From Geosiphon pyriformis uo1 (Eukaryota; Fungi; Glomeromycota), in contig JAAOMT010000494.1 of assembly GCA_016748015.1 (NCBI GenBank), forward strand, positions 736,190 through 800,189: DNA of 64,000 bases, in the 5' to 3' direction. Positions 2,947-62,900 of the stretch are shown here, in pieces (the first letter of the stretch is position 1; each line of letters begins with the position of its first letter). Made by a program: the position numbers and the translations under genes. The notes under the pieces were generated by a model. It had not been told where the DNA came from. It searched no databases and saw nothing but the letters and a program-made list of their open reading frames with translations.

Positions 2947-2952
2947 TAAAAG

Positions 2953-2969: not shown

Positions 2970-2998
2970 TTGTCAAAATTCACTTATTCTCTTATTGT

Positions 2999-8211: not shown

Positions 8212-8247
<36 letters not shown>
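5851..8247 (+). mobile_element. ORF1-only (HAL1-like) non-autonomous non-LTR retrotransposon
   Basis: TSD A9-TAGAC at 5837-5850 and 8248-8261. Poly(A) from 8213. One ORF1 followed directly by a 3' UTR homologous to the LINE tail at 31999-32127. Confidence 0.9.
5861..8089 (+). pseudogene. LINE ORF1-like nucleic-acid-binding protein (RRM-like domains, CCHC knuckle, coiled coil), about 742 codons with two in-frame TGA stops
   Basis: ATG 5861 is in frame with ORFs 6023..7198 and 7214..8089. Stops at 5936 and 7196. Motifs VALCDVPLG..YAVVNF, AKLVNLPFG..AVVTF and CYRCQSLNHLAVDC. Confidence 0.85.
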
Positions 8248-9699: not shown

Positions 9700-11013
9700 A
9701 TGGACTTGGATAACTACTCTGCCTTAATGGAATTTTTGGGTAAAGAACAATACCCATCGAAATACACACGACAACAAAAAGAACATTTGCACAAACAATC
9801 AAATTTCTATTTAATTTGCCAGAACCAACTTTATAAAAGAAATAGAAAAGATCCTGACTGCCTCCAAAGAGTCATCAGATTTAAAGAAAGAAAAATTGTA
9901 ATCTACAATATGCACACTGATCCATTAGCTGGACACTTTGGAAAAACAAAAACAATTCAGAAAACTCTAGCTCGCTATTATTGGCCTATCTTGGAAAAAG
10001 ACATTGCTGAATACATCAAAACTTGTAATATCTGCCAAAGAAGAGGAAAACCCAATCGCAAAGAAGATATTCATCCAATTTTTGTTGGTCAACTTTTTGA
10101 CAAAATTAGTATAGATGTTGTTGGACCTTTAACAATAACTCCTAATGGCAACAGATACATTATTACAGCTACCGACTATCTTATAAAGTGGGTAGAAGCA
10201 AAAGCCACTCCAGACCAAACAGCAGTCTTAATAGCCAATTTCATTTATGAAGATATCATTTGTTGCCATGGCTGTTCCAAAGAACCTTTATCTGACAAAG
10301 AAAGAGCTTTTCTCAGTACACTTGTTAAAGAACTTTGCAGAAAAATGGGAATACATCACAAACTTTCCTTATCTTATCACCCCCAAACAAATGGTCTAGT
10401 AAAACGTTTCAATAGAACACTATGTGAAACCTTAGTCAAAACCAGCAAAGAAACAAACTTATGAGACAAAGTACTGCCTTCAGCTTTGTTTGCTTATAGA
10501 ACTGTAAATCATGACATAACAAGTTATGAACCCTTTTATCTACTCTATGAATGAATGGCAACCCTACCAATAGAAATTGACATTGAAACAATACTCTTTG
10601 AAGAAATAACAATAGGGAATTACAAAGACATTTTGCAAAGAAGCCTTGGTACCATTCTTGACTCATTAGTAGAAGCATAGATAATTGTCTTTAAAAAGAT
10701 AAAACAATTCCAAGAGAAGCTTAAGAAAAAGAAACCATATAAAACACTTTCCTTAAGTGTTGATGACTTAGTTTTAAAATACCATTCAGACAGAGACAAT
10801 GTCTATGGTGATAAATTCTCTAGCTGGTAGAAAGGACTCTTTATAATCAACAAAGTTTTGAACAATGGTTCATATATCTTACAAGATCAATATGAAACAA
10901 TCTTCAATAATCGCCCTGTTCATGGCACATGACTCAAGAAATATCACAAATGACCTGATTGGTTACTTGTTGTGGTAATACCAACCCAAATGATCAACAA
11001 AAATCAGATATAA
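9700..11013 (+). pseudogene. Integrase of A2 (separate frame from RT-RH)
   Basis: HHCC (MHTDPLAGHFG..CNIC), DDE core (IDVVGP, LSD, HPQTNGLVKRFN) and a degenerate GPY/F-type tail. Confidence 0.9.
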
Positions 11014-11700
11014 ATAATTGCACCATTCCCAAAACAGAGGTATCTTCAATCGACATGAATAATTATTTCCTAGATCAAAACATTCTACACTTTCCATGAG
11101 TACTGGATCAAAAACTATCCAAATGCTACTCTGACCATTGAAAAACAAACCACCATAACTGATAACAGTGGAACACATACTGTTATTAGACCAAAGAAAA
11201 CAACTACCAAAAGAGAAAGAATTGGTAGCAAAATGGATAAGTATTTGCTAGAAAGCATAACAGCAGCAATACTTACACCTTCCATGACAATTGGAAAAAC
11301 GATTATGGAAATCTTGCCCATAGACAAAAACTTGTTATATGGAAGACAACAAGAACTCTATGGTCGTTTTGGTGAAATCATAGAATAAATGAAGCTCATA
11401 AAGAAAACAACTTCAGAGATACAAGTGGAAATTTTAGGTATTATATGTTTAAATGTTCCAAAAGTTTTGATCATTGCAAGAAGAGCCAAAACTCTTATAG
11501 AAAGATTTGGTTTCTTGGATACAAAGCTTATTTCGCCTCAAGTACTATACACTCTATCCACAAAAGACTTCAACAAACTAGTTAGTTTTGAGTTAGACAA
11601 AACCCTTCAATTAGAATACCCTATAAATAACTTGATTTTGCTGGAGCTTAATCTCTTTGGAGAGGATGATGTTATAATTGAAACCCATAATTTTTATTAA
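10990..11700 (+). pseudogene. ORF3-like helical domain of A2, in the same frame as integrase
   Basis: Continuous frame broken only by TAA/TGA/TAG stops that C-to-T changes can explain. Includes ORF 11389..11700 and runs through the PPT. Confidence 0.6.
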
Positions 11701-15300: not shown

Positions 15301-17823
15301 GAAGAAATAAACACTAGACTATGCAACCACTGTTTGATCTCTTGTGACTTCTAGTATTGTAATAAGTGTGATCTTATTTACAATTTACCATCATGTATGC
15401 TCTATACAATCCTAGAGAAAAAAGAATCAATTAGCAGCTGCACATCAGAATTGGAATCAATTTTCGATTCCAATTTAAACTCTGACAATGATGATAACAA
15501 AAACAACAGTTTTAGCTCTGTTCAAAATGGCAACAGTGATAACAACACTAATTTAAACTCTGATTCAAACCCAAACAATACATTACACTTTCTGATCTCA
15601 TCAAAGAGCAAGAACTTAAATGGTTCAGTAATACTGATACAGAGTTTGATCTAAGATATCCCAGAAAAATACCATTAAATTGGAACCACATTCACACACC
15701 TGTATTGATCTTAAAATAGCACTGGAAATCTCAGCAACAACAATGGTTTAACTAGCATCTAAGAGTAGCTTAGTAAAAAAAAAATCAACATCAGAGGAGG
15801 AATAATTGATGCAGAATATATAGAAAACATTATTGTAATGCTACAGAATAACTCTAAAAAGGCCTATATCATAGAGCCAAACAAAAAAATAGCACAGAAA
15901 ATATTCCTATCTCTGGTGAAAATAGCTCAGTTAGTGCCAGTGGGAAATAGAGAAAAATTAGAGATTACAGCAAGAGGGATACAGAGATTTGGATTAATGG
16001 GTAGAATAGATGTACCAGTTAATATGATAAAAAAAGAAGTAATTGACAAGGGAGAAATTATCTCCACTCATTAATCAATTTTCATTCCACCATATGACCA
16101 ATACATATTAGTCATAGAGAGAAAAATAAAGGATTAAGTTCAGATTTTTGAGGCAGAAGTGACACTTTGTGAATCAGGAGAGATTGAATTAGTTAATCTA
16201 CACATACTAGTTAAGAACTACAGTCACATCAAAATTCTCATTTACAACAACACAAAAAATGTTATCAAGATACCAAAAGAAACCACCATTGAATACTTAA
16301 CCACTGAAATTAAAAACCAACTGCCAAACACCATTCCAGATTTTTCACAGCTGTGCAGATATGTAGATATCACATTTCAAACAATATATGAATGAAATGA
16401 ATGTTATTTGCTCCAAGCAGAACAATTGGAACAGATGAACTTGGAAAATCTAAACCCATTACAACATATGCAGCTCAAGATATTACTTAACAATTTCAAT
16501 GACATATTTGCCAGTGAAAACAAATTTGGCAGAACTGACATCATCCAACATCAAATCAAGACTGGAGATACAATGCCAATTAAACAGAAAGCATACAAAG
16601 TACCACTAGCCAGCCATGAGATTATTCATCAAGAAATCAATCAAATACTTGACAACAGATTAATTCAGCCATCAATGAGCCCATGGTTGTCACCAGTGAT
16701 ACTAGTCTGTAAGAAAAATAGGAAAATATGTTTTTGTGTGGATTACTGGAAATTAAATAGAGTAACAAAAGTGATAGCTATCTAACTCCAAAGATCCAAG
16801 AACTTTTCGATGCTTTCAGAGAAAAAAAATGGTTTTTAACATTAGACTTAAACAGTAGTTACTGGCAAGTAGCCATAAAACCAGAAGACAAAAAAAAAAT
16901 GGCTTTCACAACACAAGAAGAGAACTTTGAATTTGAAGTTATGTCATTTGGCTTGATGAATGCTCCAGTCACTTTTTAGCAACTTATGGAAATTGTTTAT
17001 ACAGAACTACTATGGAAATCAATAGTTGTATACTTAAACAACACCAATGTGTTTTCAAAAACATTTGATGATCATCTGCATCATCTCCAATAAGTATTTG
17101 AAAGACTCAAATGAGCAGAATTGAAATTAAATGCAAACAAATGCTTCTTTGGAAAAACTGAACTCAAGTTTTTGGAACATGTAGTGAGCAAAAACAGTAT
17201 TAAAACAGATCCAGACAAGATTGAGATAGTCAAGAACAACCAACTTGACAGAACTAAAAGCATTCTTGAAATTTGTTAGATACTATTGCCACTTTATTAA
17301 AGACTTTTCCAAAATAGCTCAGCCACTACACCAACTCCAAACAAAGAACACCAAATATAAGTGGACTGAAATCCAACAAAAAGCCTTTGACACACTAAGA
17401 AGAAAACTTATTTAAGCCTCAATATTAATCTATTCAGACCATAGTAAATTATTTATCATTACTACTGATACATCAGACCAAGTATTGGAAGCAGTACTAT
17501 TACAGAAAAGACTGGATAGAAGAGAACATCCAGTAGCTTACACCAGTAAAAGCTTAAGTTTGGCAGAAAAAAACTATGAAACTTCAGCACTGGAACACTT
17601 AACTATCTATTGGGCTGTCATCAAATAGAAAAAGTACTTGAGTCAAAAGTTTGATGTGTATACTGATCACAAAATATTGACTTTAATTCAGAAGCAAGAA
17701 TTTGGAAATAATCACCATGTCAGATGAAAAATAGAACTTTCATTATTTAATTATATAGTACATTACAAAAAAGGAAAAAAAAATGGAAATGCTGACAGAT
17801 TGTCATGAATAAGACAAATCTAA
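12331..17823 (+). pseudogene. gag-PR-Cys domain-dUTPase-RT-RNase H of B1
   Basis: Many stop-broken fragments: MAYAP capsid start, LILNSGS protease, dUTPase at about 15630-16020, FCVDY. Confidence 0.88.
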
Positions 17824-17853
17824 AAACATTTCAACCCAAAAATATAACAAAAA

Positions 17854-27500: not shown

Positions 27501-27664
27501 ATACAGATCACAAAGAATTGACTTCAATTCAGAAACAAGAATTTGCAGATGATTGTCATGCCAGATGGAAAATAGAACTTTTACTATTCAATTATACAGT
27601 ACATTATAAAAAAAGAAAAGACAATGGAAATGCTGACAGATTGTTATGAATGAGACAAATCTAA
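21546..27664 (+). pseudogene. gag-pol of C1 (gag, PR, Cys domain, dUTPase, RT, RNase H)
   Basis: ORF fragments 21546 to 27469. RT YLDD lies in 26612..27469. Confidence 0.9.
25450..25860 (+). pseudogene. dut: Trimeric-type dUTPase domain of C1
   Basis: TRFDL, RSSL, GEIINTRYVG, KITQ and RIQGFES are degenerate motifs 1-5. Confidence 0.85.
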
Positions 27665-27694
27665 AAACATTTCAACCCAAAAATATAATAAAAG

Positions 27695-29136: not shown

Positions 29137-29772
29137 ATGGAAATACCAGATTATATTCACATCATAGCTCAACAATTATTCCAGGCCTTAAGTTAACAAC
29201 CTTTAGACATAGAAATTATTATTAAAAACCAAACAATTTGCTATCAAAACACCAAAAGAAAGACAAAAAATACACCATATCAGCAGTTACCAAAAAATAA
29301 TAAAAACTGGTCAGATAAAATAATAGAAAAAGTAAAAAACACTTTTGGGAAAATACCTATTATGGCACCAACAGAAAAACTTACAAAAAAAAATTGGAAA
29401 CAATGGACAGAACAACTTCCAATATTATATTGTTACTACCAATTAGGTCGAAAGTTAAATATTCAAGAGTTGTATATCGACAAATCCAAAAAGATATTTA
29501 ACCAAAACATAATACAGCAAATTGAAGAATTTATTGGGAAAAAGACAAACTCAACACTACATGGGAGAACAATTTACCAACTGCACAATATATTTCAGAA
29601 CTATCCAGAAATACTGTTATACTCTGACATGGAAATTATAACCATTAACCAATGAGAAAAAATGAACAATGTACAAGTAGAAGACATGAAAAATAAAGTC
29701 AAACAAACAATACTAGAAAAAAAAGTATTAGAGCTAATTCAGAATGAAGATTTTGACAGAGCTTAATATTAA
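29137..29772 (+). pseudogene. ORF3 of C1 (about 211 codons)
   Basis: MEIPDYIHIIAQQLF..YCYYQLG..RTIYQLH..PEILL. The frame is preserved. Confidence 0.72.
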
Positions 29773-32141: not shown

Positions 32142-33621
32142 GAGGTATTTTTTTCTCCAGTACTTGTTGGTGTTCATCTAATAATTCTTTGGTGAGCATC
32201 AGCATCAGTTTTTTGTGAGAACCAAGTAGCAGAAGAGTCTTGAAGGTAACCACCAATGATTTAGAACTTGTATTTAGTGTTATATTGGTTGACAGTAACT
32301 GCTCTCTTAAAATCATCCAATCATTCAATTGGATTTTGTGCATCATTTTTAAATAAAAGTAGTGGAGTATTGTTTTTTTGTTCTAAAGCAGTTTGTATAC
32401 TTTGGAAGACAGCTAAAATATTTGCTTGCATGGAGTTATTAGTCATTGATTCAGGAATAATTGTTTGTGCAAAATGTTTTAATTCACTTGAGAAAAGATC
32501 AAAAACAAAAGCAGTTTGGTAGCTTTTTTTTTTTGTTTTAAGGGGAGTTTTAATTGATTAATGGGCAGCAATCCAGATGTGGATTTGATAATTCAAATAT
32601 TCGAAATCAGGAAGCTGTTGTTTAAAAGTTGTTGAGTATAAAAGTTGGTTAATGCTGTTGTTTTTTTTTTCAAAGTTGTTTTCAAGATAAGCTTGGTCAA
32701 AGTAGTAAGTTGTATAGGCTGTATAAGTTTCAGCTAAATGCTTGTTTAAGAATCAGTTCCAAAAATCTTGAAATTGTCTACTGGATTGTTCTTCAATGAG
32801 AAAGCAAATTAAGCAGAAAGACAAAGAATTGAATTTAATAAAGTCTAGATTGTTTTTATTGTGTGCTTCAAAGTGTTTTTCTGATTGTTGTAACAGATAT
32901 GAATAATCATCTATATAATAGAATTTTGACAACCTTACAGGGAGCACTACTTTTATGTTATGAGTTGAAATAACAAGCTAACAGATAGCAAAAGAGAACA
33001 GAATTGTAGAGTGATAAAAGAAATCAAAGGAAATTTAACTTCAAAGAGCAAATTGAATAAGTATGGATTCAATGTGTAAAATTAGTCTCATAAAATATCT
33101 CAGTCACTATATTTTTCAAAAGATAATCAGAAAATTTGAAGGTAGAAGAATAGTCTGTACTGTTAACAAATGATTATATACTGGTATAATTCTATGCCTT
33201 ATGTCAGCACTCTTAGAATTCAATATCAGGTATTAGATATACTCTTCAGTTATGTTTTATTCAATAATCTTTAAATACTGCAATTACATGTTTTAAGAAA
33301 AAGTAGAAAACAACCAACAAATAATCTTTTATCACAAGATGTTCAAATACTTGAAAATAGAAAAAGAGAATTTAGCAATAAGAGAATAATTAAGATGAAA
33401 ATTGTTATTTTTTTTATTTTTTTTCTTTGATTCTTGTATGTTTTTCTATAGCTAAGAGATTCATTTCTTATATAGTTATCAAAAGTGGTCAATGATCAGA
33501 TCAACAACTAGGTCAATGATCAAATTAACAATTAGGTTAATAATTAGGTCAATGATTAGGTCAATAATCATTATCTAAAAAAAGAGTGGCTAATTATATA
33601 ACATCAATGGCTAATACATGT

Positions 33622-34437
33622 TATTACTCATAGAATATAGGAAATATAGTATTATTAGTCAGTAGATATTAGCCAATCAGAGGTAGATGTAGTAAATGTG
33701 GAATTTCAGAATTCTTCTCATCAGAAATTGCAAGATTCCAGGAATTTCAGGATTTCTGTCACAAAGAATTGAGGAATTGAGGAATCTCAATTATGTATAT
33801 ATAGCAGTAGAATTAGAAGCTGAAAAGACAGACCTCTCAGTTTAGATTTAATTTAAGCAACATTTCAGTTCCTAATTATCAAATAAATAATTATTCCATA
33901 TCTCAACCCACTCTCTACTATCAAAACTTCATGTTGATAATAATTGATACTTAACCATGCTGGAACAATAGCTCTTGATTATGGCTATTGACGAGATACT
34001 AACGTACCAAATTGCCTTGACTTATTTTTTCTATTTTCTTTATTTTTATTTTCTTTATTTTATTTTTATTTCTTTCTTTTTTTGATTTTGTTGTTGTATA
34101 CTAATTGATTAAAAGATTAAGCACTGAGTTATTGATGTCAAGAATAGCCTGGTAAAAGACCCAGAAATAAGGGTAGGATTTTATATATTATCAGATAGCT
34201 TACCAAAAGGGCACGACTACTAGACTAAATCTGGCCACCACACTGAGAAAGAAATTGGGAAAACTTTTGGAAAGATACAGCTACTATTGACACTATTGAA
34301 TTTCTGTCCATTATACAAAGAACTCCATCAAAACCTTCAGATACAACAATTGCAGAACCTCATCCATGGAAGTAGCTTTTGAGCACCAAGTTACGGGTTG
34401 TTATTTAATTCAACAGCAGAAATAATCATCTGTAATA
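33622..34437 (+). repeat. 5' LTR of B2
   Basis: Direct repeat of 42991-43846. Confidence 0.95.
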
Positions 34438-34499
34438 TTTGATGCTCCCTGTGAGGTATAATCCTACAGAGAACCAGCACCAACAAACACTATTCAAAA

Positions 34500-37400
34500 G
34501 TGGCAGAATCAGAAAATATAGGAGCAAACCATTTAGGATTCACAAAGTTCTTATTTCAACACTATTGTCAATACTTGGGATTAAATCACAATCATATATC
34601 TGCCGAATCAGCCTTCAATTTCTACATCAACAAAAAGATTTCCTCTTTATTAGGAACACCAGTGAATACTGAATTAGCAAGAGAAACTTTCTATAGGGAG
34701 TTAATTCAAAATACCAACCTGCCAACAAATCATAATTTCACATCCATCATCACTGAGATCAACAAAGAAATTAAACACCACATTCAACAAAGATATCTAA
34801 TTACATATGCTAGTAAAGGCAAGGGAAAACGAAAAACACCAGCAGTAACACCCAGAAAAATACAGCCACCTACTTGGAAGAAAAACAGAATTGAATTCCC
34901 AAGCAACCCATCCTACCACTATACACCTGAAAGCACCATCAACATATCATTAACAGATGCATTCCCATCAACTGTGACATCAGCATTTGGATGATTTTCA
35001 TTTCAAAGTAGACAAAGGAAAACAGAATTATTAGGACCATATGGTAAATACTTTGAGAGATTTAATTCACGATTATCAATTCCATTAGGACTTCGATTAC
35101 CACCGCCTCCACCAGATTTCGGGATCTCTGATCCATGAGAAGCAGCAGAATCAGAAAAAGAGGAAAAAGAATCAGAGAATCAAGAATTTACTTACCAGAA
35201 CCCAATCACTGAAAACCTGGAAGTTGAAACCCCGAATTTTCAAACTCAGCAAAATCTAAATCTAAAAAGTTCAGAAATCAAAACTCCAAATTGTCAAAGG
35301 CAGAACAATCCAAACCCTGAATTAAATAATCAGCAAAACTTATCTCTGGTAATTGTCATCGATCAACCACTGATTAATCCCATAGCCGAACTCATACAAC
35401 AGCCACTTCAACTACCACCTCAACAACCAGTACAACAACAACTGCTTCAACAGCTACCACAACCACCTAACTTAGATCCAATGGCCTATGCACCAATTGC
35501 AAAACTTGACAACTTTACTGGCAAAGAGGATGACACTCAAGTATGGTTGAATGATGTAGAAAAGACCATCGCAGCCAACAGATGGAATGATGCCCAAGCA
35601 ATACAAGCCATTCCCTACTTTCTCAAGGATACCACCAATTCGTGGTATCAGAGCTTGGTTAATAAACCACAAGATTTCAATGCCTTCAAAATGGAATTTC
35701 TAAGATACTTCAGCAATAATAACAGCATCAATCACCTAGTCAATACATTCACCACCATGAAACAAAGAAAAACTGAAGCAGTCACCACTTACCTAAAATG
35801 CTTCTATTAAAACCTGCGCCAAATTCAAGCAATTGATGCCAACTATTTTACAGCACCACAGATACTCAACCAGTTTATCCATGGCCTGCGCAGCAGCATC
35901 TTGCAATATATACATCCGTTGCATCCAGGCACACTTCAAAACACAGTCACACATGCCAGAGATTTTGAATCTGCTGAGTCAGAAGCCAACCATGCCCAAG
36001 CCATTAATCTAGTAATGAACAGATCATCTGAATTAGATTCCAAATTGGAGAAGTTCAGTGAATCAATTAATAAGAGATTGGAAAGATACTTAGCTGACAA
36101 TCACGCCATTTATCAGCCTTCACAATGACGCAATAATCAAGGAAACTCTAATCGTGCCCAAAATCAACCACATCCATCTTTATCAACCAATCAACAGTGG
36201 CAACAGGAAATGCGTATCTGCCACTATTGTGGTAAACAAGAACATATCCAAATGGACTGTCGCCAGTGTTTAAATAACCAATAATCAGGAAATCAATATT
36301 AAAACCCTGATCGCCGGTTCCAAACTCTGAATCAGTACCCAAATCAAAACCAATCCGCTTATCTACCAGTTACACAGTCATCAGTCTATTAATCTCTGGT
36401 GTATTAAGCTCCAATCTATCAACCACAGCCACAAGTAATTTATCAACAACTGCAGTCACAAATAATCTATCAACCCCAAAAAATCCAAACACCACCCCAA
36501 AGCTTACCACTCAACAGAACCCAAAGACCAAGAATGACTTAACAGAGATGGAGATCAGCGATAGTAGTCCATCAACTGATCCCCAGTTCTTCACAGCAAC
36601 CATCTGGATTACGCCAGCAGAATTTGGGTGTTGGTCAACCCCAGAACCCAAATTCCCAGAACTATTTAAGTCTCCTGGTCACCCCAGAAAATGCCTCAAC
36701 CAATAACCCGACATTTGCCCAAAAACAACCACTCACCAATAATATTCTACCTGCTACCATTACTGAAGACGAGTCTTTGGCTATTATATTTCCATTTGAA
36801 TTTGAAGAAACAACTGTAATGTCATTATTTAGTGGAGCCACTTTTGAAGCCAAACCAATCATCGTGATGTATACTAACGCCAAAGTCGAGGGACAATCCA
36901 TCAAATTAATCCTTGACAGCAGTTCAGCAGACAGCATCATCACATGACAACTTATGGATCAATTAGGTTGCCGAGTTGATTGAGCTGCCAGCACCAGAAT
37001 CATCATAGCCGATAGAGCAACCAAAACTCCAATCGGCGAAATTAACGACTTCTCTTTTGAAGTCAATGGCATTGTGACTCCTATTAAAGTTCTAGTGATG
37101 GAAGCCACTCAATACCAAGCTCTCATTGGTAATGACTGGCTATTCAAAGTCAACACGACATTAGACTGGAACACTCAGGAACTCCAGCTAACATATTAGG
37201 GCCAACACATATGTGTACTGGCCATGTGTGGTCACTTTAAAACTCTTCCAAGAGAGAAACTATTGATCAAACTGGAGGAGGAGAAAGAGAAACCTACTTG
37301 GGAAGCTTACCAAGTCTCGTGGGCCAATGTTGACCACAATAAACTGCTGCCAATACTTGCCTAGGATGACGATAACAATGGAAAAGAGGAACAAGAAAAA

Positions 37401-40400
37401 GAATCTATTTGTGGAACCACTATCGATGCTTGGACTGATGACAAAGACCACCACAAGCTAATGCCAATACTATCGTGGGACGACAACCCCAAGAGAAAGC
37501 AAAGAGAAGAACTTACCTGGGAAATAGATGACCTGACCTGAACTGACAACGATAAACAGGAACTGACACCAAGCTGGAAATAGAAAGAAAGCAACAAAGG
37601 GAAAGGAAAAGCAAAAGAAAAAGAGCCACTGTTAATAAACTCATATACTTCCTATCAATATACAACACCACAACAATTCACCTATTGACGACCCAAACTA
37701 GTGTGTGTCAATTGCGGCAAAAAATTGTTGTCAATGGGTGCATGCTGTGGCAATGACAAAGAATATTAGACAGCAACCAAGTTTTATTGTTACGCATGTC
37801 TCATTAAACACTTTGGAAGACCAAAACGAGTGGGAAAATGGGATAATACACCATGTCTAGCCTGTGGAAAAACTCTCCTCAATGAAGGAATGTGGAACAA
37901 CATTCCTGGAAGAGAAGGAATGTGCGATGTGTCCTGCCAATACACAATCTTTATCAGTGACTGGGTTGAGAAAGGAACACCCATAGAAGCCGCCTGGAAA
38001 AGAACTGTACAGCAATTGGACAGTTGTCCATATGACAACGATGAAATATGGCAGATGGCAATCGCCAAAATTGAAGATGTGTCACCAGAAGAAATCAGGA
38101 CAATTAAAAACAACCCACCAGAACCCATCGAGCTTGACTGGGATGCAGAGCCAGTCATAAATTTTCTGGAACCAGAAGAGTTCCATGAACACTACCAAAA
38201 CTTGGCACCCATTAGAGAAAAGCAAGAACAATAGCTAGCACAGTTAAATACAAGACTGTGTTGCCATTGTTTAATTCCCAATGACTTTGAATATTGTGAC
38301 AATTGTGATCTCATTTACAATCTACCACCACGCATGATCTACATGATCCCTGAGGAAGAAGAACCAATCAGCAGCTGTGCATCGGAATTAGAATTGCTGA
38401 TCAATCATGATCCAGACTTCGATGATGATGATGAAAACACTGGTTCCAGCTCCATTCAAAATGGCAATGACAACAAAGACAATTCAAACTCAGATTCAAA
38501 CTTTAATTTAAACTATGAACAATATATTGCACTATCAAATCTCTTCAAAAAACAAGAGTTGAAATAGTATAGTGACAATGGGGAAGGTATTATGTCAGAA
38601 CATGCACATGATACTGATGCAGGGTTTAATCTGAGGTATCCAGGAAAAAAGGCCATCAAATTGAAACCACATTTACACACTTGCATTGATCTGAAAGTAG
38701 CACTAGAAATTCCGGCAACAACAATGGTTCAACTAGCATCTAGGAGTAGTTTAGCAAAAAGAGAAATTAATATAAGAGGAGGAATAATTGACACAGGATA
38801 TGTGGGAAATATCATTGCTATGCTACAAAATGACTCAGAAAAGGCCTATATAATAGAGCCCAATAAAAAGATAGCACAGGCAATATTTCTGCCTCTGGTT
38901 AGAGTAGCTCAGTTAGTATCAGTGAGAAAGAGAAAGGAATTAGAAATAACAACAAGAGAAATACAGGGATTCAGATCAATGGGTAGAATAGATGTACCAA
39001 TTAATATGGCGGAAAAAAAAATTATTGGCCAAGAAGAAATTATCTTAACCAGTCAAGCTATTTCTATTTCACCATATAACCAGTACATGCTAGCAATAGA
39101 AAAGAAGGAAAAAGACCAAGCACAAATTTTTGAAGCAGAAGCCAGTCTTTGTGAATCAGGAGAAGTTAGACTCATCAATCTCCACATACCAGCCAAAGAT
39201 TACAGCCACATCAAAATTCCCATCTACAACAATACAGAAAATGTCATAGAAATACCAGCTGGAATTATTATTGGATACTTAAACACTAAAATAGAAGATC
39301 AACCACCAAACCCCATTCCAGACTTTCTACAACTTTGTGGATATATTGATATCATATTACAAACAATATATGGATAACGTGAATATTATTTGCTCCAACC
39401 AGAACAATTAGAACAAATGAACATGGGAAACTTAGATCCACTCTAACGTATGCAACTCAAAATGTTGCTCAACCAGTTCAATGACATCTTTGCCAGCAAA
39501 AATGAGTTTGGCCAAACCAACATTATCCAGCATCAGATTAAGACTGGAGATGTAATGCCAATTAAACAAAGAGCATACAGAGTACCACCAGTTAGCCACG
39601 AAATTATTCGGCAAGAGATAAACTGAATGCTTGACAATAGGCTAATTCAGCCATTGATGAGCCCATGGTCATCACCAGTAGTACTTATCCATAAGAAGAA
39701 TGGAAAGATCTGATTTTGTGTGGACTACAGAAAACTCAATGATGTAACTTGTGGAGACAGCTATCCAACTCTATGGATACAGAAATTATTTGATGCTTTT
39801 GGCAGGAACAAATGGTTCTCAACATTACACTTGGACAGTGGTTACTGACAAGTGGCCATAGATCCAGCTGACAAAGAGAAAATGGCATTTACCACGAGAG
39901 AAGGGAATTTTGAATTTGAAGTAATGCCATTCGGTTTAACCAACGCACCAGCCACTTTCCAATGGCTAATGGAAATCATCTATACTGGCTTATTGTGGAA
40001 ATCAGTAGTTGTATACTTGAATGACACCAATGTATTCTCAAAAACATTTGATGATCATTTCCATCATCTTCAACAAGTGTTTGAAAGACTAAGAAGAGCA
40101 GGACTAAAGTTAAATGCAACAAAGTGCTTCTTTGGCAAGACAGAACTAAAATTCTTGGGATATATAGTCAGCAAAGATGACATCAAAACAGATCCAGAGA
40201 AAATAGAGATAGTAAAGAACTTTCCAATGCCCACCAATATGACAGAACTAAAATCATTCTTGGGATTTGCCAGCTACTATTGATGTTTTATCAAGAACTT
40301 TTCCAAGATAGCGCAGCCACTCAACCAACTGCAAACCAAGAATACCAAATATGAATGGGCAGAAAGTCAACAAGAAGCTTTTGACATTTTGAAAAGAAAG

Positions 40401-40817
40401 CTCATTCAAGCTCCAGTACTGATTTATCCAGATCACAGCAAACCATTCATCATCACCACCGATGCATCTGGCCAAGTATTGAGAGCAGTATTATCTCAGA
40501 GAAGACCAAACGGCAGAGAACATCTAGTAGCATATGCTAGCAGAGGTTTAACACCAGCCAAAAAGAACTATGGAACACCAGAACAAAAACACTTAGCAAT
40601 ATACTGGACAGTCATGAAATGGAAAGAATACTTGAGCCAGAAGTTTGAAGTATACACAGATCACAAGGGATTAACATCACTCCAAAAACAAAAATTTGGA
40701 GATGGAAGACAGTCAAGATGGAAAATGGCACTTGCACTATACAATTATATTATACATTACAAAAAAAGAAAAGACAATGGAAATGTTGACAGTTTGTTAC
40801 AAATGAGACAAATCTAA
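34500..40817 (+). pseudogene. Single-frame gag-pol of B2 (gag, PR, Cys domain, dUTPase, RT, RNase H)
   Basis: The main ORF fragments (34500, 35481, 35901, 36624, 37830, 38334, 38592, 39852, 40389) all share one reading frame. Confidence 0.92.
38592..39000 (+). pseudogene. dut: dUTPase domain of B2
   Basis: DAGFNL, RSSL, GGIIDTGYVG, KIAQ, REIQGFRSMG. Confidence 0.9.
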
Positions 40818-40911
40818 GAAAATTTTAACACAAAAATATAACAAAACCAGAACAATACCAACAAAAAATATAACAAAACCAGAACAATACCAACAAAAAA
40901 TATAACAAAAG

Positions 40912-42294
40912 ATGAACATACAAAAATATTAATAACTTCAACATTATATAAATACTCAACAGTTTAAGAAGAATTTATTTCAAACAGAATGAAAGAGTAT
41001 CAAACAACAATCAAAATATTTTATTACTTACCAAAATATACTTTATCGGAAAAATAGAAAAGATCCAAATCAACCAACTAGAGTAATTACAGAACCAGAA
41101 AAAGAGATAATATTATTTAACATGTACTCAAATCCAACAGCAGGACATTTTCACAAAGAAGCAACCATGAAAAGAACCAAAAAAAGATACTATTGGCCAT
41201 CAATGTATTCAGACATCATCCAATATGTTCAAAATTGTGATGCTTGTCAGTGAAGAGGAGATATGAAACCCAGTGAACCATTAAGACCAATCAAAGTAGG
41301 ACAACCATTTGACCATGTTGGAATTGATCTAGTTGGACCATTAACAATTACCAGCGGAGGAAACAAGTACATAGTAGTAGCCATGGACTATCTCACTAAA
41401 TGGCCAGAAGCAAAAGCAATTCAAAGAGCAGATGCAGAATCTGTTGCCAAATTTGTTTATCAGGATTTGATCTGTCAACATAGATGTCCAAAAGAATTAT
41501 TATCAGATCAAGGAACTTATTTTGTGAACAAAACATTAACAGAATTGAGCCAAAGATTCGGAATTAAGAGACCACTATCATCACCATACCATCCACAAAC
41601 CAATGGATTAGTCAAAAAATTCAACAGAACATTATGTGAAGCAATAGCTAAACTCAGCCAAGAAAACCAAAACGATTGGGATTTGTTGATACTATCAGTA
41701 CTATTTGCTTATTGGACAATGAAGCAAAATACTACACAAGCAATACTATTTGAATTAGTATATGGTAGAACAGCAACACTACCAATGAAAAGAGAAGTCA
41801 GCACATATCCAATCGAACCAATAACAGAAGAAAATTTCAAAAATACATTGTTGAAAAGAACATATGACCTAATAGAAACATTAGAAAACAAACGACAAAG
41901 AGCAGCTGATAACATACAAAAGTCACAAGAGAAAAAAAAAGAAAGACATGATAACCAACTACCAGATAAACCAGTTGAATTTAGGATTGGAGACAAAGTA
42001 CTACTACATCATACCAAAGCGGAAAAACAATGGAGTGGAAAATTTGACCCCAAATAGAATAAACTATTTCACATAAAAGAAATTCTAGAAAATAGAGCTT
42101 ACAAATTAAGATTGAATAACAAAATCTTGACCAAAGCAGCACATAGAGATCGACTGAAACCATACTACCATATAGCATCATTATCTACTAGTAATATTCC
42201 ACAATTAGGAGTACAGAGAATACTAGTCCAACCAGATGAGATTCTACGAGAGCTAAAACCAATCATTATTATTGATAACAACACGTCCAATTGA
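40912..42294 (+). pseudogene. Integrase ORF of B2
   Basis: GIDLVGP, LLSDQG, SPYHPQTNG, KFDPK and an SH3-like tail. No chromodomain seen. Confidence 0.92.
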
Positions 42295-42347
42295 TCGACA
42301 AAAGAATATATAAGAATATGATCAACATGACAGGAAATATCAGAAAA

Positions 42348-42977
42348 ATGGAAATTACAGACAACATTCACTCACTAGCACAACAACTCTTTCAATTGAT
42401 TTAACACTAGGAAATGGAGATTACAATCAATTAACAAACCATTTGATATCAAAATACTAGAAAGACATTGCAACCCAGAACACAAAAGAAAACTGAAAAT
42501 ATGGTGAACAAAATCATTGCGAAAGTAAAATTAGCAATAAAAGAGTCAACAAAAGAGTTATTATATCAAGAATTGACTAAAGAAACTTGGAATTAGTGGA
42601 TACAACAATTTCCATAAAACTATTGTTATTTTTATTTGGGACAACACATAAATATCCAGAATCTATATACAGATAAAACAAAGCGATTATTTAACAAAAG
42701 AATACTACAACAATTAGAATATTTTGTGGGAAAAAACAACTTATCCACACAGGCCTGAGCCATATACTGAATACACACAGCATTTTAGGATAGACCAGAA
42801 ATATTACTCAACAAAGCAATGGATATGGTTACCAGTAATCAATTGGGAAAGATCACCAATGCTCAATTTGAAGAATTACAGACCCAAATAACACAAGTAA
42901 TTCTCGAAAACAAAATCCAGGAAATACTTCAAGAGAGAGAATTAAATGAGTTGGATTTCGATGGAGCTCAATATTAA
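42348..42977 (+). pseudogene. ORF3 of B2 (209 codons)
   Basis: MEITDNIHSLAQQLF...DFDGAQY*. The frame is preserved and the stops are of the C-to-T type. Confidence 0.72.
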
Positions 42978-42990
42978 AAGAAGAGGATAA

Positions 42991-43846
42991 TATTACTCAT
43001 AGAATATAGGAAATATAGTATTATTAGTCAGTAGATATTAGCCAATCAGAGGTAGACGTAGTAAATGTGGAATTCCAGAATTCCTCTCAGAGGAATTGCA
43101 GGATTCTAGGAATTTCAGGATTTCTCTCATCAGGAATTGCAGGATTCCAGGAATCCCAGGATTCCTGTCACAAAAAATTGAGGAATTGAGGAATCTCAAT
43201 TATGTATATATAGCAGTAGAATTAGAAGCTGAAAAGACAGACCTCTCAGTTTAGATTTAATCTAAGCAACATTCCAGTTCCCAATCATCAAATAAATAAT
43301 TATTCCATATCTCAACCCACTCTCTACTATCAACACTTCATGTTGATAGTAATTGATACTTAATCATGCTGAAACAATAGCTCTTGATCATGACTATTGA
43401 CGAGATACTAACGTACCAAATTGCCTTAGCTTATTTTTTCTATTTTCTTTATTTTTATTTTCTTTATTTTATTTTATTTTCTTTTTTTTTTTGATTTTGT
43501 TATTGTATACTAATTGATTAAAAGATTAAGCACTGAGTTATTGATGTTAAGAATAGCCTGGTAAAAGACCCAGAAATAAGGGTAGGATTTTATATATTAT
43601 CGGATAGCTTACCAGAAGGGCATGACTGCTAGACTAAATCCAGCCACCACACTAAAAAAGAAATTGGGAAAACTCTTGGAAAGATACAGCTACTATCAAC
43701 ACTATTGAATTTCTGTCCATTATACAAAGGACTCCATCAAAACCTTCAGATACAACAATTGCAGAACCTCATTCATGGAAATAGCTTTTAAGCACCAAGT
43801 TATGGGTTGTTATTTAATTCAACAGCAGAAATAATCACTTGTAACA
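42991..43846 (+). repeat. 3' LTR of B2
   Basis: Follows the PPT, ends TGTAACA and is followed by the TSD. Confidence 0.95.
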
Positions 43847-46524: not shown

Positions 46525-47249
46525 TGTTATGATTAAAACTTATACTTTTTATTAATTATCACATGTATTAGCCACTAATATCACATAAATTAGCCACTCT
46601 ATTTTTAGAAAGTGATTATTGATCTGATCAATGACCTGACCATTAACCTGATTATTGACCTGATCATTGACTTAATCATTGATTTAATCATTAATCTAGT
46701 CATTAATCTGATCATTAACTACTTTTAACAGCTATATAAGTAATAAATCTCTTAACTGTAGAAAAGTATGTAAAAATCAAGGAAATCAAATAAATAAAAT
46801 AACAACTTTTATCTCAATCTTTCTCTTATTGCTAATTTCTTTTTCTCTACTTTTAAGTATTTGAACATCTTGGGATAAAAGATTACTTGTTGGTTATTTT
46901 CTACCCTTTTCCTGAAATGTGTAATTACAGCATTTGAAGATTATTAAATAAAATGTGACTGAAAAGTACATCTAATACCTGATATTGAATTCTAAGAGTG
47001 TTAACATGAGGCATAGAATTATACCAGGTGTGATTATTTGTTGACAGTATGGACTATTCCTCTACCTTCAAATTCCGGTTATTTTTAGAAAAGTACAGTG
47101 ACTGAGATATTTTATGAGACTGATCTTATATATTAAATCCTTACTTATTTAATTCACTCTTTGAAGTTAAATTCCCTTTAATTTTTTTTACCACCCTATA
47201 ATCCTGTTCTCTCTTGCTATCTGTTAGCTTGTTACTCCAACCTGTAACA
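46525..47249 (+). repeat. 5' LTR of A3
   Basis: Homologous to the A1/A2 LTRs and followed by a PBS. Confidence 0.92.
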
Positions 47250-50200: not shown

Positions 50201-52073
50201 AAAAGAAGATAACACCTCTGGACACACTTATATGATACAACATATCATTATCACTAAGAAAACTCATCTCATTTATTTAAAGCCTTATCAATCTAATTGA
50301 TACAATGATGAATTTATCAAGAAAAAGATAAACCAGATAAAAGATCTTGGATTCATATAAAAAACCAAGAGTGAATAGACTTTTCCAGTTGTAGTAATAT
50401 TCAAGAAAGATAGAATCCTATGCTTCTGTGTTGACTACTGCCAACTAAATGTCATCACTATAAAAAATATGTACACACTTCCCAAAATTGATGCAATGCT
50501 AGATAAATTCAATGATGCTGCTTTCTTTTCAACCATTAACTTAACTGCTGAATTCTGGCAAGTAGAGATGGATCCAGAAAGCAAAAAAAAAACTGCTTTT
50601 ATCACCAAGTATGGCACCTATGAATTCACAGTTATGTTTTTTGGTCTTACCAATGCTCCTTCCACTTTTCAATGCCTAATGAATAAAGTGTTTAAATTAG
50701 TAAAAGAAAACTTTGTTCTGGTTTACTTAGACAACATAATAGTATATTCAAAAACCTAGGATAAATACTTTGAACATTTACAGAAGGTTTTTGACCTGCT
50801 CTAAAATGCTGGCCTTAAGATCAACCCAATTAAATCTTTTTTTGGATGCCAATCCACCCAGTTTTTTGGTCATTTTATTACAAAAAATGAAATCTTCTCT
50901 GATTCAGCTAAAATTGAAAAAGTTCAAAACATTAGACAACCAATAAATGTTCCTAAACTATGCTTTTTCCATGGTTTGGCCTCTTATTATCACAAATTTA
51001 TCAAAGATTTTTCCAAAATTGTCTTTCCTTTCAATCAGCTACTCAGAAAAAATATCAATTATTACTGGAGTATTTATCAACAAAAAGCTTTTAAAATTCT
51101 GAAAGAAAAACTTGTTACTGAACCAATTTTTAAGCAACCTAATCTGAACCAACCTTTTATCTTCTATACTGATACATTTGGTTATAGACTTAGTGCTGTT
51201 TTTTCACAGAAAAATGAAAATAGCAGAAAACATGCCATAGTATATACCAGTAGATCCCTCACATCAGCAGAAAAGAACTATTCAATTACTAAACAGGAAT
51301 ACTTACTAGTAGTTTGGACTACTAATTACTGGAATCAATATTTTCTAGGCACAAAATTCTTAGTGGTAACAGATCATTAAGTCTTGGTTTGACTGTGCAA
51401 TAAAAAGAAGCTGGAACACAAAAAAATAACTTACTGGATACTCTACTTAGATAAATTCAACTATAACATTCAACATTATAAAAGAGCAAATCATTAAAAT
51501 GTAGATGTTTTTTCTAAACTTACCATCCAGTAACAGTACAACCTTTCAAACCAAACCAACTTAATTATTAGTAACTCTTTCACAAACAAACACAATAATA
51601 AACTTGGACAACTATTCTGCCTTAATAGAATTTTTGGGTAAAGAACAATACTCACCAGAATACACTTGACAGCAAAGAAAACATTTGCATAAACAATTAA
51701 ATTTCTATTTGATCTGCCAAAACCAGTTATATAAAAAAAACAGAAAAGATCCTAACTGTCCCCAAAAAGTCATCAAATTTGAAGAAAGAGAAATAGTAAT
51801 ATACAATATGTACACTGATCCATTAGTTAGACACTTTGGAAAAACAAAGACAATTCAAAAAACTTTAGCTTATTATTATTAGCCTATCTTGGAAAAAGAC
51901 ATTACTGAATACATCAAAACCTGTAACATCTGTCAAAGAAGAGGCAAACCCAATTGCAAAGAAGATATCCATCCAATCTCTGTTGGTCAATCATTTAACA
52001 GAATTGGTATAGATGTTGTTAGACTTTTAACAATAACTTCTGATGGTAACAAATATATTATTACAACTACCAA
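46525..52073 (+). mobile_element. Family A copy A3 (5' LTR to mid-integrase, cut by C2)
   Basis: LTR 46525-47249, PBS about 47256-47270, gag about 47302-48855, pol to 51533, integrase from 51598. Confidence 0.92.
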
Positions 52074-52910
52074 TGTTATTTATAAATAAAAAAAAACAGA
52101 TATAGAAAATAGCAGACCAATAAGAGAATAGTATTTAGCACATGAGCACATTGCTTAGCAATGTGAAGCAATGTCAGAAAACACAGCATATTACTTAGCA
52201 ATATGGAGCGATATTAAAAAATTAGAGCACATCACTTAGCAATATAAGCATTGCTCAAAAAATCATAGCACATTGCTCGAGAATGTGAGCAATCTTATAG
52301 AACATCAATCATATATATATAGCAGTAACAGTAGAAGTAGAAAAAAAAAAAGAAAAAAAAAACAATTAGTTAGAAATCTTCCATTCACAAATAATAAATA
52401 AATAAATTATTTACTATCCAAATCCACTCTCCACTATTAACACTTCATATTGATAGTTATTGATACATAACTATACTGGACCAATAGTTTTTGATCATGG
52501 CTATTGATGGAATACTAACATGTTCATTGCCTTGGCTTATTTTTATGTTATTTCTTTTATTTTCTTGTCTTAATTGTTGTTATTACTAACTTTATTGAGG
52601 ATTAACATACAGAGTACTAACATTAGAATATAGCACTGGTAAAAAACCCAGAAATAAGGGTAGAACACTCAATTAAGGTTAGCTTACCAGGAAAAACACT
52701 GGCCATCATGCTAAGAAAAAAATTGATAAAACTGCGGTTTTGGGAAGCTACAAATAAAACTATTACTACTGAATCTCTGTTCATTATACAAAAAACTCAA
52801 CCAAAACCTTCAGATAAATCCATCTTCAGATTTCTATCATTGACAACAGCCTTAAGCACCAAGTTACAGGTTTGTTATTTACTCCAACAACCAAGTAATC
52901 ACCTGTAACA
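52074..52910 (+). repeat. 5' LTR of C2
   Basis: C-type U3 repeats with TGTTA..TAACA ends. Confidence 0.9.
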
Positions 52911-58900: not shown

Positions 58901-59954
58901 AAGCATTGGGAGCAGTACTATCACAGAGAGGACCAGATAGAAGAAAACATCCAGTTGCATATGCCAGCCAAGATTTAATTCCAGCTGAAAGAAATTATGG
59001 AACACCAGAATTAAAACACTTAGCAATTTATTGGGCAGTCATAAAATAGAGCAAATACTTAAGCCAGAAGTTTGATATATATACAGATTACAAGAGATTA
59101 ACAGCACTTCATAAACAAGAATTTGGAGATGGAAAACAATTAAGATGGAAAATGGCACTATTACTATATACTTATACTATACATTATAAAAAGGGAAAAG
59201 ACAATAAAAATGCTGACAGTTTGTTGTGAATGAGACAAATCTAAAACATCTTAACACAAAAATATAACAAAAGATGAACATACAAAAATATTAACAACTA
59301 CAACATTATATAAATACTCAACAGTTCAAAGAGAAATTATTTCAAAATAAGTAAAATAATATCAAACAACAATCAAAATATTTTATCAATTATAAAGATA
59401 TACTTTACTGGAAAAACAGAAAAAATTCAGATCAACCAATAAGAGTTGTCACAGAACCAGAGAAAGAGACAATATTATTCAACATGTATTCAAATCCAAC
59501 AGCAGAACATTTTTATAAAGAAACAACCATGGAAAGAACAAGAAAAAGATATTATTGGTCATCAATGTATTCAGATATCATTCAATATGTTCAGAATTGT
59601 GACGCTTGTTAAAGAAGAGGTGGAACAAAACCCAATGAACTATTAAGACCAATCAAAGTGAAACAATTATTCGACCATATTGGAATTGACTTAGTCGGAC
59701 CATTAACAATTACCAGCAGAGGCAACAGATACATTGCAGTAGCTATGAACTATCTCACAAAATGGCCAGAAGCAAAAGCCATTCAAAAAGCAGATGCAGA
59801 ATCTGTTGCCAAATTCATTCATCAAGATTTGATTTGTTGACATGAATGTTCAAAAAAACTACTATTAGATCAAAGAACTCACTTTGGGAACAGAACATTA
59901 GTGGAATTAAGTCACCAATTTGGAATCAAAAGACCAGTATCATCATCATATCAT
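52074..59954 (+). mobile_element. Family C copy C2 (5' LTR to mid-integrase, cut by D1)
   Basis: LTR 52074-52910, PBS 52913-52929, gag-pol 52971-59244 with dUTPase at about 57020-57430, integrase from 59274. Confidence 0.92.
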
Positions 59955-62900
59955 TGTTACCAGTAGAATTTTAGCTATTAATTAGCATGAAATTACTCTT
60001 ATAATTCCTATAATTCATTAGTATATTAATATCATTTCAAATTATCATTTATTATTTAATCAATTATTACATATTACAATTCAATTAAAATAATCTAATT
60101 AGTATAACAAAAAGTAAGATGATCAAATTACACAATACCCTGAACTTTGTAACATTCAAAAATTCGCCAAAATTTACAGAAATTCACCGAAATTTATAAG
60201 AAATTCCCCGAAATTTACAGAAATTTGCCAAAATTATGAATAGTTCACCCAAATTAATCAATAGTTCAGCAAAATAACTTGTAGTTCATCAAAATGTATC
60301 TTTAGTTTGCCAGAATTTGGGCAAAGAGAAAAAGTGCAAGTTCATAAACTAGTACTACAACAAATTGTATAAAAGAAGAGCTTTTCTCTTCTGAAAAATG
60401 TATCTTACTTTAGATTTATCTCTTAAAAACCATTCCTATACACACAAAAAAAAATAAATATCAAATAATTCGAAAAACCAAATTCTTTAATTATTGTACT
60501 TGGAAAAATTCTCAAAATCCAACTAACATTTTGAAATTGATTAGCTACCAATTTCAGTAAACTGTTAATAACTCCAGGCCTGGATAGAAAACGTTTCTCT
60601 TGACAAAATTCTATTTCTTTTACATTTTTTTTATTTTTCTTTTTTTTTCTTATTACAATCATTAGGGTAGCCTACAGACAAGATTTCTGTAGAAGAGTTG
60701 ACTTTCACAGCAAAGTAACTATACATTTTAGTAAGCTTCCAGATGAGCAATTCCTGGGAAAGAGTTGACATTTATTACAACATAACTACATAAAGCAACT
60801 GGCATGGAATTGGCCATTCCACTTATAAGCCCAGCAGTTCAAATTATAGGAGATAATTTGAAGATAAATTCAGTTATTGGAGGTTTAACTACTTCTAGAA
60901 AACGTGAATTCACAACAAACAGACATTAACAATGTTTAAAAAAAGAGACCAAAAACCTCCGGTAATATTTGGTGCTCTCTTATGGAAATAACACAGAAAC
61001 AACAAATTCAAAGTGGCGACCACACCAAACACAGCAACTTTAGAGTATTACCAGTCAATTTACACCCACTGTAAGCAAAGATTCAACATTCCAGACGGAA
61101 TTGAAATTGTAAAGAAATCAGTATACCAATACATTGAAAACCGCATCAACAATTATCTTTTTGAAAACTACAATGTTTCAGAAGTTAGAAGTAATCTCTA
61201 CAATAATTTAGTGCATTATTCACATTTGGGAACAGAAGACCTGAACAGTGAAACACTTGCTACCTACTTCCAAGAACTTAATTTTAATATTATTAAGCAT
61301 TGTGAAGAAAAATACCCAGTACAGTCTAAATACTCTTTTGACTTTGAATCAGAGACAGAAACAAGCAACAAAAACAAACAAAGATTGAAGCAATACTCAA
61401 GAACCACTCTAAACACTCCAACACTACAAAAGACAACTGCCAAACACTTGCAAATACCTGAACAAGGAACTAGTGTCAAATTACCACTTTCTATTACACC
61501 ATTTCCAATTTCACTTGTTCAACCACAAACACCAAGTTCACCACTTAGCCGTTTCTCCAGACCAGAAGATTTTCAGTCACCTAGAAATCCTACTCAACAG
61601 CAGGAACCAATATCAACAAGTGCCAATATCATTGATTACTTACAGGAAAACGAAAGTAATCATTCAGAAAGCTTGGAAAGTAAAGAAACTGAATCAGAAC
61701 CAGAAGAAATTCCAGAAAACGAAAAAAAAATGGCAACTGCTTACATTGCAAAAATTTCAGAATTTACTGGTGAAGACAATGATACCAGTCTCCAAGAATG
61801 GCTTGACAAAGTTCAAAAAGCAGGAGATGCAAATGGTTGGATTGCAGCAAGAATGCTCAAAGCAATTCCCTACTTTCTCCAAAGAACAGCAGAAGAATAA
61901 TTTGAAAATTTAGAAGAACCATTTGAAAACTGGCAAGCATTCAAAGATGCTTTTCTACAACAATTCACCGACAACAATACCTCTATCACTTTCAGAAACC
62001 GCTTTTGCAATATCAAACAAGAAACATTTGAATCTGTTATGACCTATCTTGGAAGATTTAACAAACTTTTCAGATGAATCCGACAATTGGAAACCAATGA
62101 CTACTATTCTGATGCTCAAGTTCTGGATCAGTTTATAGCAGGGTTAAAAGACAAACTAATTAAGAAAGTCCGTCCACATGTTTCAGCAGACTTAGCAACT
62201 GCTATTAGACATGCAAAGAGCTATGAAATGGCAATGGAAGAAGCAAATCACACCAAGCTTGTAAACCTTGCAATTGGAGAAACCAGCTCAGCAGCTGAAA
62301 AGAAGATAGACCAACTCACAAAAAAAGTTGAAAGCTACTTCACAAACTAACAACAACAGCAACAACAACCACAAAGATATCAACTCCCACAATGACGCAA
62401 CCAAAACAATTTTGGATTATCATCCAACAACCAATTTCAAAATTGTCATTATTGTGGAATTCCAGGACACTGGAAACGAGATTGTAGGAAATTACAAAGA
62501 AACCAACAAAACAGGAGTAATCAACATTACTCTTCACTACAACAATTCTATTACCAATCTCCACCACCAACTTATTATTCACCAAGACCACAAAATCAAA
62601 ACAGTTACTATCCACCAGCTCCACAATCAATGCAGCAACAATATCAGCAACCTTTACCAATTCAGCCATATCAGACACCACCCACTCAACAATATCAAGT
62701 ACCAGCAAGAAAATTGGTTCAACATAACCAATCCACACCCCAAAATCAATTGCAGAATAACCACAACAGAATCAATCCAAATAACCAGTTGGTTCCCTGA
62801 AATTCGGGCCAGCAAAGACCCAATCACTATCACACTCAATCTAGTTATCTCATAATACCAGAGGAATCGGATTTTCAACAAACTGCACTTTCTGAAGGTG

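Follow-up and report, generated by a model that had tools for sequence, protein, structure and literature searches.

We found that integrase (IN) is encoded outside Pol, as a reading frame of its own, in a lineage of Ty3/Gypsy-derived fungal LTR elements that is represented by six decayed copies in the window and by intact relatives. This split organisation is real and lineage-wide. It comprises a stop at the end of Pol, a separate frame for IN, a fixed first methionine, the order gag-pol / IN / ORF3, and selection against ATGs near the stop. We hold, with about even confidence, that IN is made by termination and restart with short scanning on the full-length RNA.

Split junctions in the window

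The window is the whole stretch of DNA that was analysed, 64,000 nucleotides from Geosiphon pyriformis. It is a pile of decayed LTR elements with a CpG observed/expected ratio of 0.15. An HMM scan found exactly six RNase H and six IN domains, paired and all on the forward strand, and each IN match begins at profile position 1-2. Gag domains PF03732 and PF19259 were also found. The most complete element is B2, which has LTRs, a single frame from gag to RNase H, IN, ORF3 and a purine tract; a decayed stretch resembling a primer-binding site follows its 5' LTR, and the purine tract precedes its 3' LTR. The elements and their parts are as follows.

9165..9632, forward strand: A2 RNase H end and Pol stop (TAA at 9630-9632)
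9633..9699, forward strand: A2 spacer, 67 nt, ATG-free and unstructured; contains the 3' part of a 43-nt GT..TAG candidate intron (9629-9671)
9700..11013, forward strand: A2 stand-alone IN (helical N-terminal part, H2C2, rve core, C-terminal part), interrupted by decay stops
11074..11700, forward strand: A2 probable ORF3 remnant (weak profile match, E 0.0045)
17821..17853, forward strand: B1 Pol stop, then an in-frame spacer of 30 nt that contains a second TAA
17854..19230, forward strand: B1 stand-alone IN, decayed
27662..27694, forward strand: C1 Pol stop, then an in-frame spacer of 30 nt that contains a further TAA
27695..29071, forward strand: C1 stand-alone IN, decayed
29155..29712, forward strand: C1 ORF3 (29% identity to ORF3 of the intact relative L002, E 2e-9)
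33619..34437, forward strand: B2 5' LTR, ends approximate (94% identity to the 3' LTR over 736 nt)
34455..40817, forward strand: B2 gag-protease-dUTPase-RT-RNase H, a single frame broken by 25 internal stops and closed by TAA 40815-40817
38595..38951, forward strand: B2 dUTPase, between protease and RT (PF00692, E 2e-18)
40818..40911, forward strand: B2 spacer, 94 nt, A-rich and ATG-free
40912..42294, forward strand: B2 stand-alone IN, decayed
42300..42976, forward strand: B2 ORF3 remnant, identified by eye from its likeness to C1 and L002 (profile score not significant)
42977..43846, forward strand: B2 putative polypurine tract and 3' LTR, ends approximate
51531..51597, forward strand: A3 Pol stop and 64-nt spacer
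51598..52086, forward strand: A3 IN 5' part, truncated, with ATA at the start position
59242..59273, forward strand: C2 Pol stop and 29-nt spacer
59274..59957, forward strand: C2 IN 5' part, truncated

A dUTPase also lies between protease and RT in C1 (25447-25794) and C2 (about 57011-57241), and a Cys-rich stretch lies ahead of that of B2 (about 37700-38400). The pol gene of A2 carries an insertion (5857-8243) that has a frame with an RRM and zinc knuckle and a poly(A) run near 8210, and that looks like a retrocopy or a non-LTR element. Copies of family A are found in either orientation and nested with other families (62-2251 versus 46522-48697; 2613-5856 versus 46922-50168), and LTRs contain short tandem repeats.

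At each of the six junctions a TAA closes RNase H directly after the residues LTIQ or RQI, at 9630 (A2), 17821 (B1), 27662 (C1), 40815 (B2), 51531 (A3) and 59242 (C2). The spacers that follow are 67, 30, 30, 94, 64 and 29 nt long, respectively. None of the six contains an ATG, and IN starts with ATG in five copies and with ATA in A3. A preliminary description of this DNA had reported the conserved TAA, these preceding residues and spacer lengths, and a second in-frame TAA within the 30-nt spacers of B1 and C1; all were re-found on measuring them again. It had also pointed out that the spacers occur in all three phases. They do so in the window, but as an argument this carries less weight there than was claimed: the 94-nt spacer of B2 consists of 30 nt plus two 32-nt tandem units and that of C2 differs from the 30-nt form by one base, so the B/C ancestor probably had a single in-frame 30-nt spacer, and the phase differences inside B/C are probably in part secondary.

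The shared TAA might instead be a product of C-to-T decay common to related dead copies. CpG is depleted in these elements, CAA-to-TAA changes are frequent, and decay stops do reach three of the four B/C copies at a single codon elsewhere in the window elements. The junction is the sole column stopped in all four B/C copies, and likewise in both A copies (A2 and A3), a pattern that is suggestive, and not proof, of a stop that predates the decay. Families A and B/C, which lie far apart on the IN tree, both have the stop. We accepted the split as real because intact relatives carry it, which goes beyond the window's own evidence: between open frames they have TAA, TAG or TGA, several of them with no CpG depletion. 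We regard decay as the origin of the stop as scarcely credible. CG methylation of elements is reported for R. irregularis in the accessible text of 10.1101/2021.03.30.436303.

Split elements among relatives

RNase H could be seen ahead of IN in 43 of 80 metagenome loci. At 25 of these the two were split, at 12 they were fused and at six the copy was broken, with RNase H continuing into IN-like sequence in most of the six. All 25 split loci have the window's type of IN. The split is also present in two full-length relatives, L014 and L031, in which every frame is open; the LTRs of L031 are 435 nt long and 97% identical, and a TGG-start stretch follows the LTR. In L014, L019 and L031, the gag domain PF00098 was found in addition. 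The stand-alone IN and the gag-pol / IN / ORF3 layout that had been proposed from the six window copies are thus borne out by relatives with open frames, in the same order, including both full-length elements. Extra frames of no recognised kind lie between or beside the main genes at L014:7458-8258, L034:2945-3538 and L037:308-556.

The first residue of IN is fixed. The A2 IN matched 394 proteins of 139-445 residues, and among the best 120 of these, 101 have Met at profile position 1, 12 begin later and seven have extra residues in front. Because this search could return only short proteins (139-445 residues), proteins of 773-2205 residues were searched too. Of the 120 listed from that search, most show about 30-42% identity and come from other lineages; IN relatives in this lineage show 40-65% identity. 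P0126 is a true Pol-IN fusion with a shorter IN front, and P0234 has 45% identity over 59% of the A2 IN query. P0121 and P0122 lack the RNase H end and the first IN residues, from which we infer that they are gene models joined across the Pol/IN junction; P0124 lacks most of RT and RNase H. These three and P0301 are long proteins in which Pol or IN runs into the following frame with conserved ends missing, and are probably gene-prediction artefacts. Named records of the IN family come from Rhizophagus, Cetraspora, Entrophospora and Paraglomus, with Funneliformis added by ORF3. All are arbuscular mycorrhizal fungi, which points to a fungus of this kind as the probable host of the window elements too. 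No member of the split clade was found by score in the viral and prokaryote collections.

Trees of IN placed 28 split rows on one side of a branch and 48 fused rows on the other. The SH-aLRT values of 98 and 95, from quick trees, support the view that the split INs form one clade in which the split state is ancestral. When other rows were included, L030 was unresolved at the base of the IN tree. RNase H and RT-RNase H trees, in which the reference rows were unnamed fused relatives and not named Gypsy clades, did not bring the split elements together in a single clade (4 changes), and one split clade was not rejected on the RT-RNase H data (p-AU 0.40). The truncated A3 was omitted from the trees, and L044 was omitted from alignment A5.

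Many loci have a frame of 145-230 aa after IN, which we call ORF3. The family comprises 521 clusters at 50% identity, and its predicted fold consists of eight helices (pLDDT 92). No Pfam family matched at E <0.01 in 15 members; a match to DUF1016_N in one of the 15 (E 0.11) was not trusted. There was no usable match in the Atlas, Foldseek returned none at E 0.001 in PDB or BFVD, and the best structure comparison among 48,161 chains had a Z of 4.7. By its predicted structure, ORF3 thus appears to be a conserved helical protein family, small and soluble, with no known fold matched. We considered whether ORF3 could be an env glycoprotein, as in Errantivirus and other env-bearing elements; at about 145-230 aa and all-helical it is not env-like.

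Expression of integrase

We compared the junctions of 32 relatives, 23 with RNase H visible and nine with only the Pol tail visible. L010 and L018, near-copies of L009 and L019, were excluded; some of the loci are closely related, and the junction counts are not fully independent. The Pol stop was TAA in 22, TAG in seven and TGA in three. Spacers ranged from -11 to 727 nt: six overlapped, three were 1-30 nt, 21 were 31-170 nt and two were longer. The overlaps were TAATG (two), ATGA (one), -8 (two) and -11 (one). L014 is among the overlapping loci, and the spacer of L002 is 24 nt long.

The spacer phases of these relatives (10/12/10) argue against the notion that Pol and IN are fused by recoding, whether by readthrough, a frameshift or a small intron. 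Some junctions would allow it: the B1 and C1 spacers are in frame, and three of the 10 in-frame relatives (L002, L004 and L029) have no second stop. However, further stops interrupt the other seven, as well as B1 and C1, and sister pairs have spacers one base apart (L004/L047, 63 and 64 nt; L029/L038, 75 and 76 nt). The 43-nt GT..TAG intron would rejoin the frames of A2, but a GT..YAG intron able to do so is impossible in 30 of 38 junctions, A3 among them. Nor is a fixed Met1 expected of a linker. The lineage does appear, by eye, to recode upstream of RT, with TGA-CTA and slippery-looking sites, but none of the 38 Pol stops lies in a TGA-CTA context, which is a context for readthrough. For the lineage as a whole, recoding is largely refuted, and we consider it very improbable. 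A CAA codon with a constant in-frame spacer, and an intron at 9629-9671, had been named in the preliminary description as what to expect if the split were not genuine; open-frame relatives keep the stop in all three phases, and the intron does not serve A3.

The junctions upstream of RT vary among relatives. By eye, they have in-frame TGA-CTA stops (L031:3358-3363, L013:870-875, L040:1585-1590) or overlapping frames with slippery-looking sites (L014:3132-3147, L023:2898-2919). The TGA-CTA stop of L031 is located between protease and RT.

ATGs were depleted around the Pol stop. Spacers of 3-170 nt contained five ATGs in 30 junctions, compared with 26.6 expected from base shuffles and 19.5 from dinucleotide shuffles; for a thinned set of 23 junctions the base-shuffle figure was 22.9. 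The last 18 nt before the stop contained no ATG in 26 non-overlap loci (7.3 or 4.0 expected), and further upstream ATG was not depleted, with counts normal or above those of shuffles. The Pol tail behind RNase H varies from 3 to 587 residues, and the ATG-free boundary tracks the stop regardless. Each of the five ATGs in spacers begins a short frame whose end lies no more than 20 nt from the IN start, in one case as an ATGA overlap. A purine was present at -3 in 27 of 32 IN starts and in 122 of 193 internal Met codons. The two longest spacers, in L013 (365 nt, seven ATGs) and L031 (727 nt, 12 ATGs), showed no ATG depletion and have no linking frame.

An ATG pattern that is anchored on the stop, at a variable distance from RNase H, fits a terminating ribosome that moves slightly back or scans forward. 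In the restart mechanism that we propose, ribosomes would terminate at the Pol stop of the full-length RNA and restart at the nearest AUG. Post-termination small subunits may restart up to about 20 nt upstream in the overlap junctions, or may scan 24-170 nt downstream, as in the window families, across A/C-rich unstructured spacers. IN output would then be coupled to Pol output without a protease cut, and IN made on genomic RNA is predicted to enter the particle by binding that RNA, Gag or RT. The junctions between IN and ORF3 take the same forms (-8, -4, +2 and 32-41 nt). The human LINE-1 ORF2 is made by restart across a spacer of similar length.

The overlap forms in six of the 32 relatives match those known from viral stop-restart in the available sections of PMC10275272. 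As described there, restart of the TURBS type has stop and start within about 20 nt, and efficiency drops past about 30 nt. None of the window's six spacers is within that 20-nt range, which counts against restart; stop and start are that close in six of the 32 relatives, and 23 of the 32 have spacers >30 nt. The TURBS motif is UGGGA upstream of the stop; it was found near the stop in one of 38 junctions, not above background. GTA was depleted in spacers as well (nine versus 20.8 expected), so that ATG is not the sole avoided triplet, which weakens the restart reading. ATG depletion before ORF3 was not significant (seven versus 9.2, six of the seven in one locus).

Our results might also indicate that IN, and ORF3, are translated from a shorter RNA, made from an internal promoter near the end of pol or by splicing from the 5' LTR. 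ATG depletion and good start context are equally expected of a subgenomic leader. The long, ATG-rich spacers of L013 and L031 would be hard to scan, as would the distance to ORF3 where it lies more than 1.3 kb past IN (1358 nt in L025 and 1600 nt in L014). Foamy viruses, according to parts of PMC5035957, express Pol through a spliced RNA and also possess an internal promoter. However, the ATG-free zone tracks the stop and not a fixed RNase H position, and a shorter RNA does not predict stop-start overlaps. Family A has a branch-like TTAAT and a TAG before IN, as splicing would require, but no acceptor is conserved: YAG was not enriched in the 60 nt before IN (40 versus 48.5 in 32 loci), and in the interval from the closest upstream ATG to the start of IN, YAG is missing from 11 of 38 junctions and even AG from five. 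A splice acceptor encoded by the ADALSR codons was also considered and dropped, as these codons vary freely. We think a shorter RNA possible, though on the doubtful side; it is the strongest alternative to restart. On balance the evidence speaks for reinitiation rather than a spliced RNA, without being decisive, and the mechanism may differ among subclades.

One subclade has an RNA motif just before the IN ATG. In 15 loci (L003:290-337, L005:581-628, L007:591-638, L008:1136-1183, L019:4459-4506 and ten more) we found a stem, a 12-nt bulge, a 6-bp stem and a CANNGYGA loop, one copy per locus, with the 3' end a few bases from the IN start in most. Nine of 10 pairs have changed on both sides and 93.6% of cells pair, a covariation reached by none of 500 shuffles and not closely approached by slid pairings; the structure was derived from the same related 15 sequences, and the shuffle result is not a probability. 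The hairpin loci form one clade (SH-aLRT 91). The motif was absent from the other 65 loci and, with filters off, from the window (best 14.5 bits), and no Rfam family matched in the 13 of 15 loci scanned. A different hairpin, across the Pol stop, was rejected as a candidate: it folds above shuffles in B1 (17784-17856, z -3.6) and C1 (27625-27697, z -2.1) and not in B2, C2 or L002.

In the same subclade a Cys/His-rich domain lies behind RNase H at the end of Pol (L019:3773-4438, L024:2678-3214, L008:490-1116). It was matched in 11 of the 15 hairpin loci, one of them weakly, and in no other locus; the remaining four have little upstream sequence. It matched no Pfam family and had no Atlas match.

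The covarying hairpin raises the possibility that ribosomes enter internally, at an RNA element just ahead of the start of IN, with no dependence on Pol termination. It is missing from the window and the other 65 loci, where spacers are unstructured, and the model of it was built from the 15 loci of one clade. It would equally fit a restart enhancer (compare SART1) or a protein-binding site. We judge internal entry to be a distinctly improbable route for IN. The hairpin could be a candidate restart enhancer, an internal entry site, or a binding site for IN or for the Cys/His tail.

Relation to known systems

The elements resemble Ty3/Gypsy in having LTRs, a putative polypurine tract, a gag with capsid and zinc knuckle, and the order PR-RT-RH-IN, and among solved structures the IN profile matches Ty3 Gag-Pol best (E 9e-51). 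In the ICTV profile of the Metaviridae, IN lies inside pol (PMC7879559); here it lies outside the pol gene. The stop after RNase H in six of six copies and in 25 loci makes this a variant derived from Ty3/Gypsy and not a canonical member. The third ORF also differs from that of Ty3/Gypsy elements with env, being predicted to encode a small soluble helical protein. Families B and C have a dUTPase between PR and RT, where it has been described before in fungi and rotifers (portions of PMC6431247).

Stop-restart is described in caliciviruses, influenza B, CHV1, HvV190S and, with a need for structure downstream of the stop, the non-LTR element SART1 (PMC10275272, in the sections available). In some relatives a long frame ends in a UAAUG or AUGA overlap, as in these systems, and one subclade likewise has RNA structure by the junction. 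The elements differ in that most spacers are 24-170 nt, there is no UGGGA, the hairpin lies between stop and start, and the downstream product is the integrase of an LTR element.

The nearest packaging analogy may be foamy virus Pol, likewise an enzyme of a reverse-transcribing element that is made apart from Gag and packaged by another route (PMC5035957, in part). In foamy viruses a spliced RNA yields the whole of Pol, IN included, as a single precursor; in the present elements RT-RH remains joined to Gag and IN alone is separate. The proposed entry of IN via genomic RNA would resemble the packaging of foamy virus Pol through the genome. Elements of the DIRS type have a separate recombinase frame, but it encodes a tyrosine recombinase, as stated in passages of PMC5006619.

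Ginger1 and YPYY-type Gypsy integrases offer another likeness: a free-standing Gypsy-like IN with an extension before the H2C2 finger, the YPYY type being common to Ginger1 and Athila/Tat-related elements (both from excerpts of PMC2836005). By eye, the IN N-termini here have the spacing Y..YP..Y/F..LY, which resembles the motif of about 40 aa that precedes the zinc finger in YPYY-type integrases. A Ginger1-like protein with IN and OTU (P0125) aligned to 99% of the query with 35% identity, and its branch lies close to the split clade. Unlike Ginger1, the elements here have retained LTRs, gag and RT and lack an OTU or Ulp1 tail, and their IN lies behind RT-RH and ends at about 420 aa. The IN tree does not show a direction of descent between split IN and Ginger1.

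Taken together, these observations allow a broader reading, which we offer tentatively and think unlikely to hold as a whole. A branch of fungal LTR elements would be polycistronic (Gag-Pol, IN, ORF3) by chained stop-restart. The subclade hairpin, always behind the Cys/His tail, would be a cis-acting switch that drives restart and serves as a handle for packaging IN. The free IN may mark a route between Gypsy integrases and Ginger1 transposases.

A Ty3/Gypsy variant with a stand-alone IN frame appears to be a new organisation. We found no prior description of a split integrase in the open literature searched; one may have appeared in Repbase, a supplement or a subscription journal. The available portions of PMC6431247, PMC5911963, PMC5006619, PMC13468544, 10.1101/2022.12.01.518749 and PMC12440569 mention no LTR element whose integrase has a frame of its own.

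These findings matter for annotation. In these fungi, annotated genes appear to connect Pol with IN by excising the RNase H end, and intact split elements can pass for broken ones. The lineage offers a new structured RNA and two uncharacterised protein families, and it is a candidate case of restart following a very long reading frame in fungi. Fusion of IN to Gag-Pol is the textbook route by which the particle receives IN in the correct amount. That fusion was given up by a large lineage that has intact copies and named hosts in five arbuscular mycorrhizal genera, and having dropped it, the lineage must make and package IN in another way.
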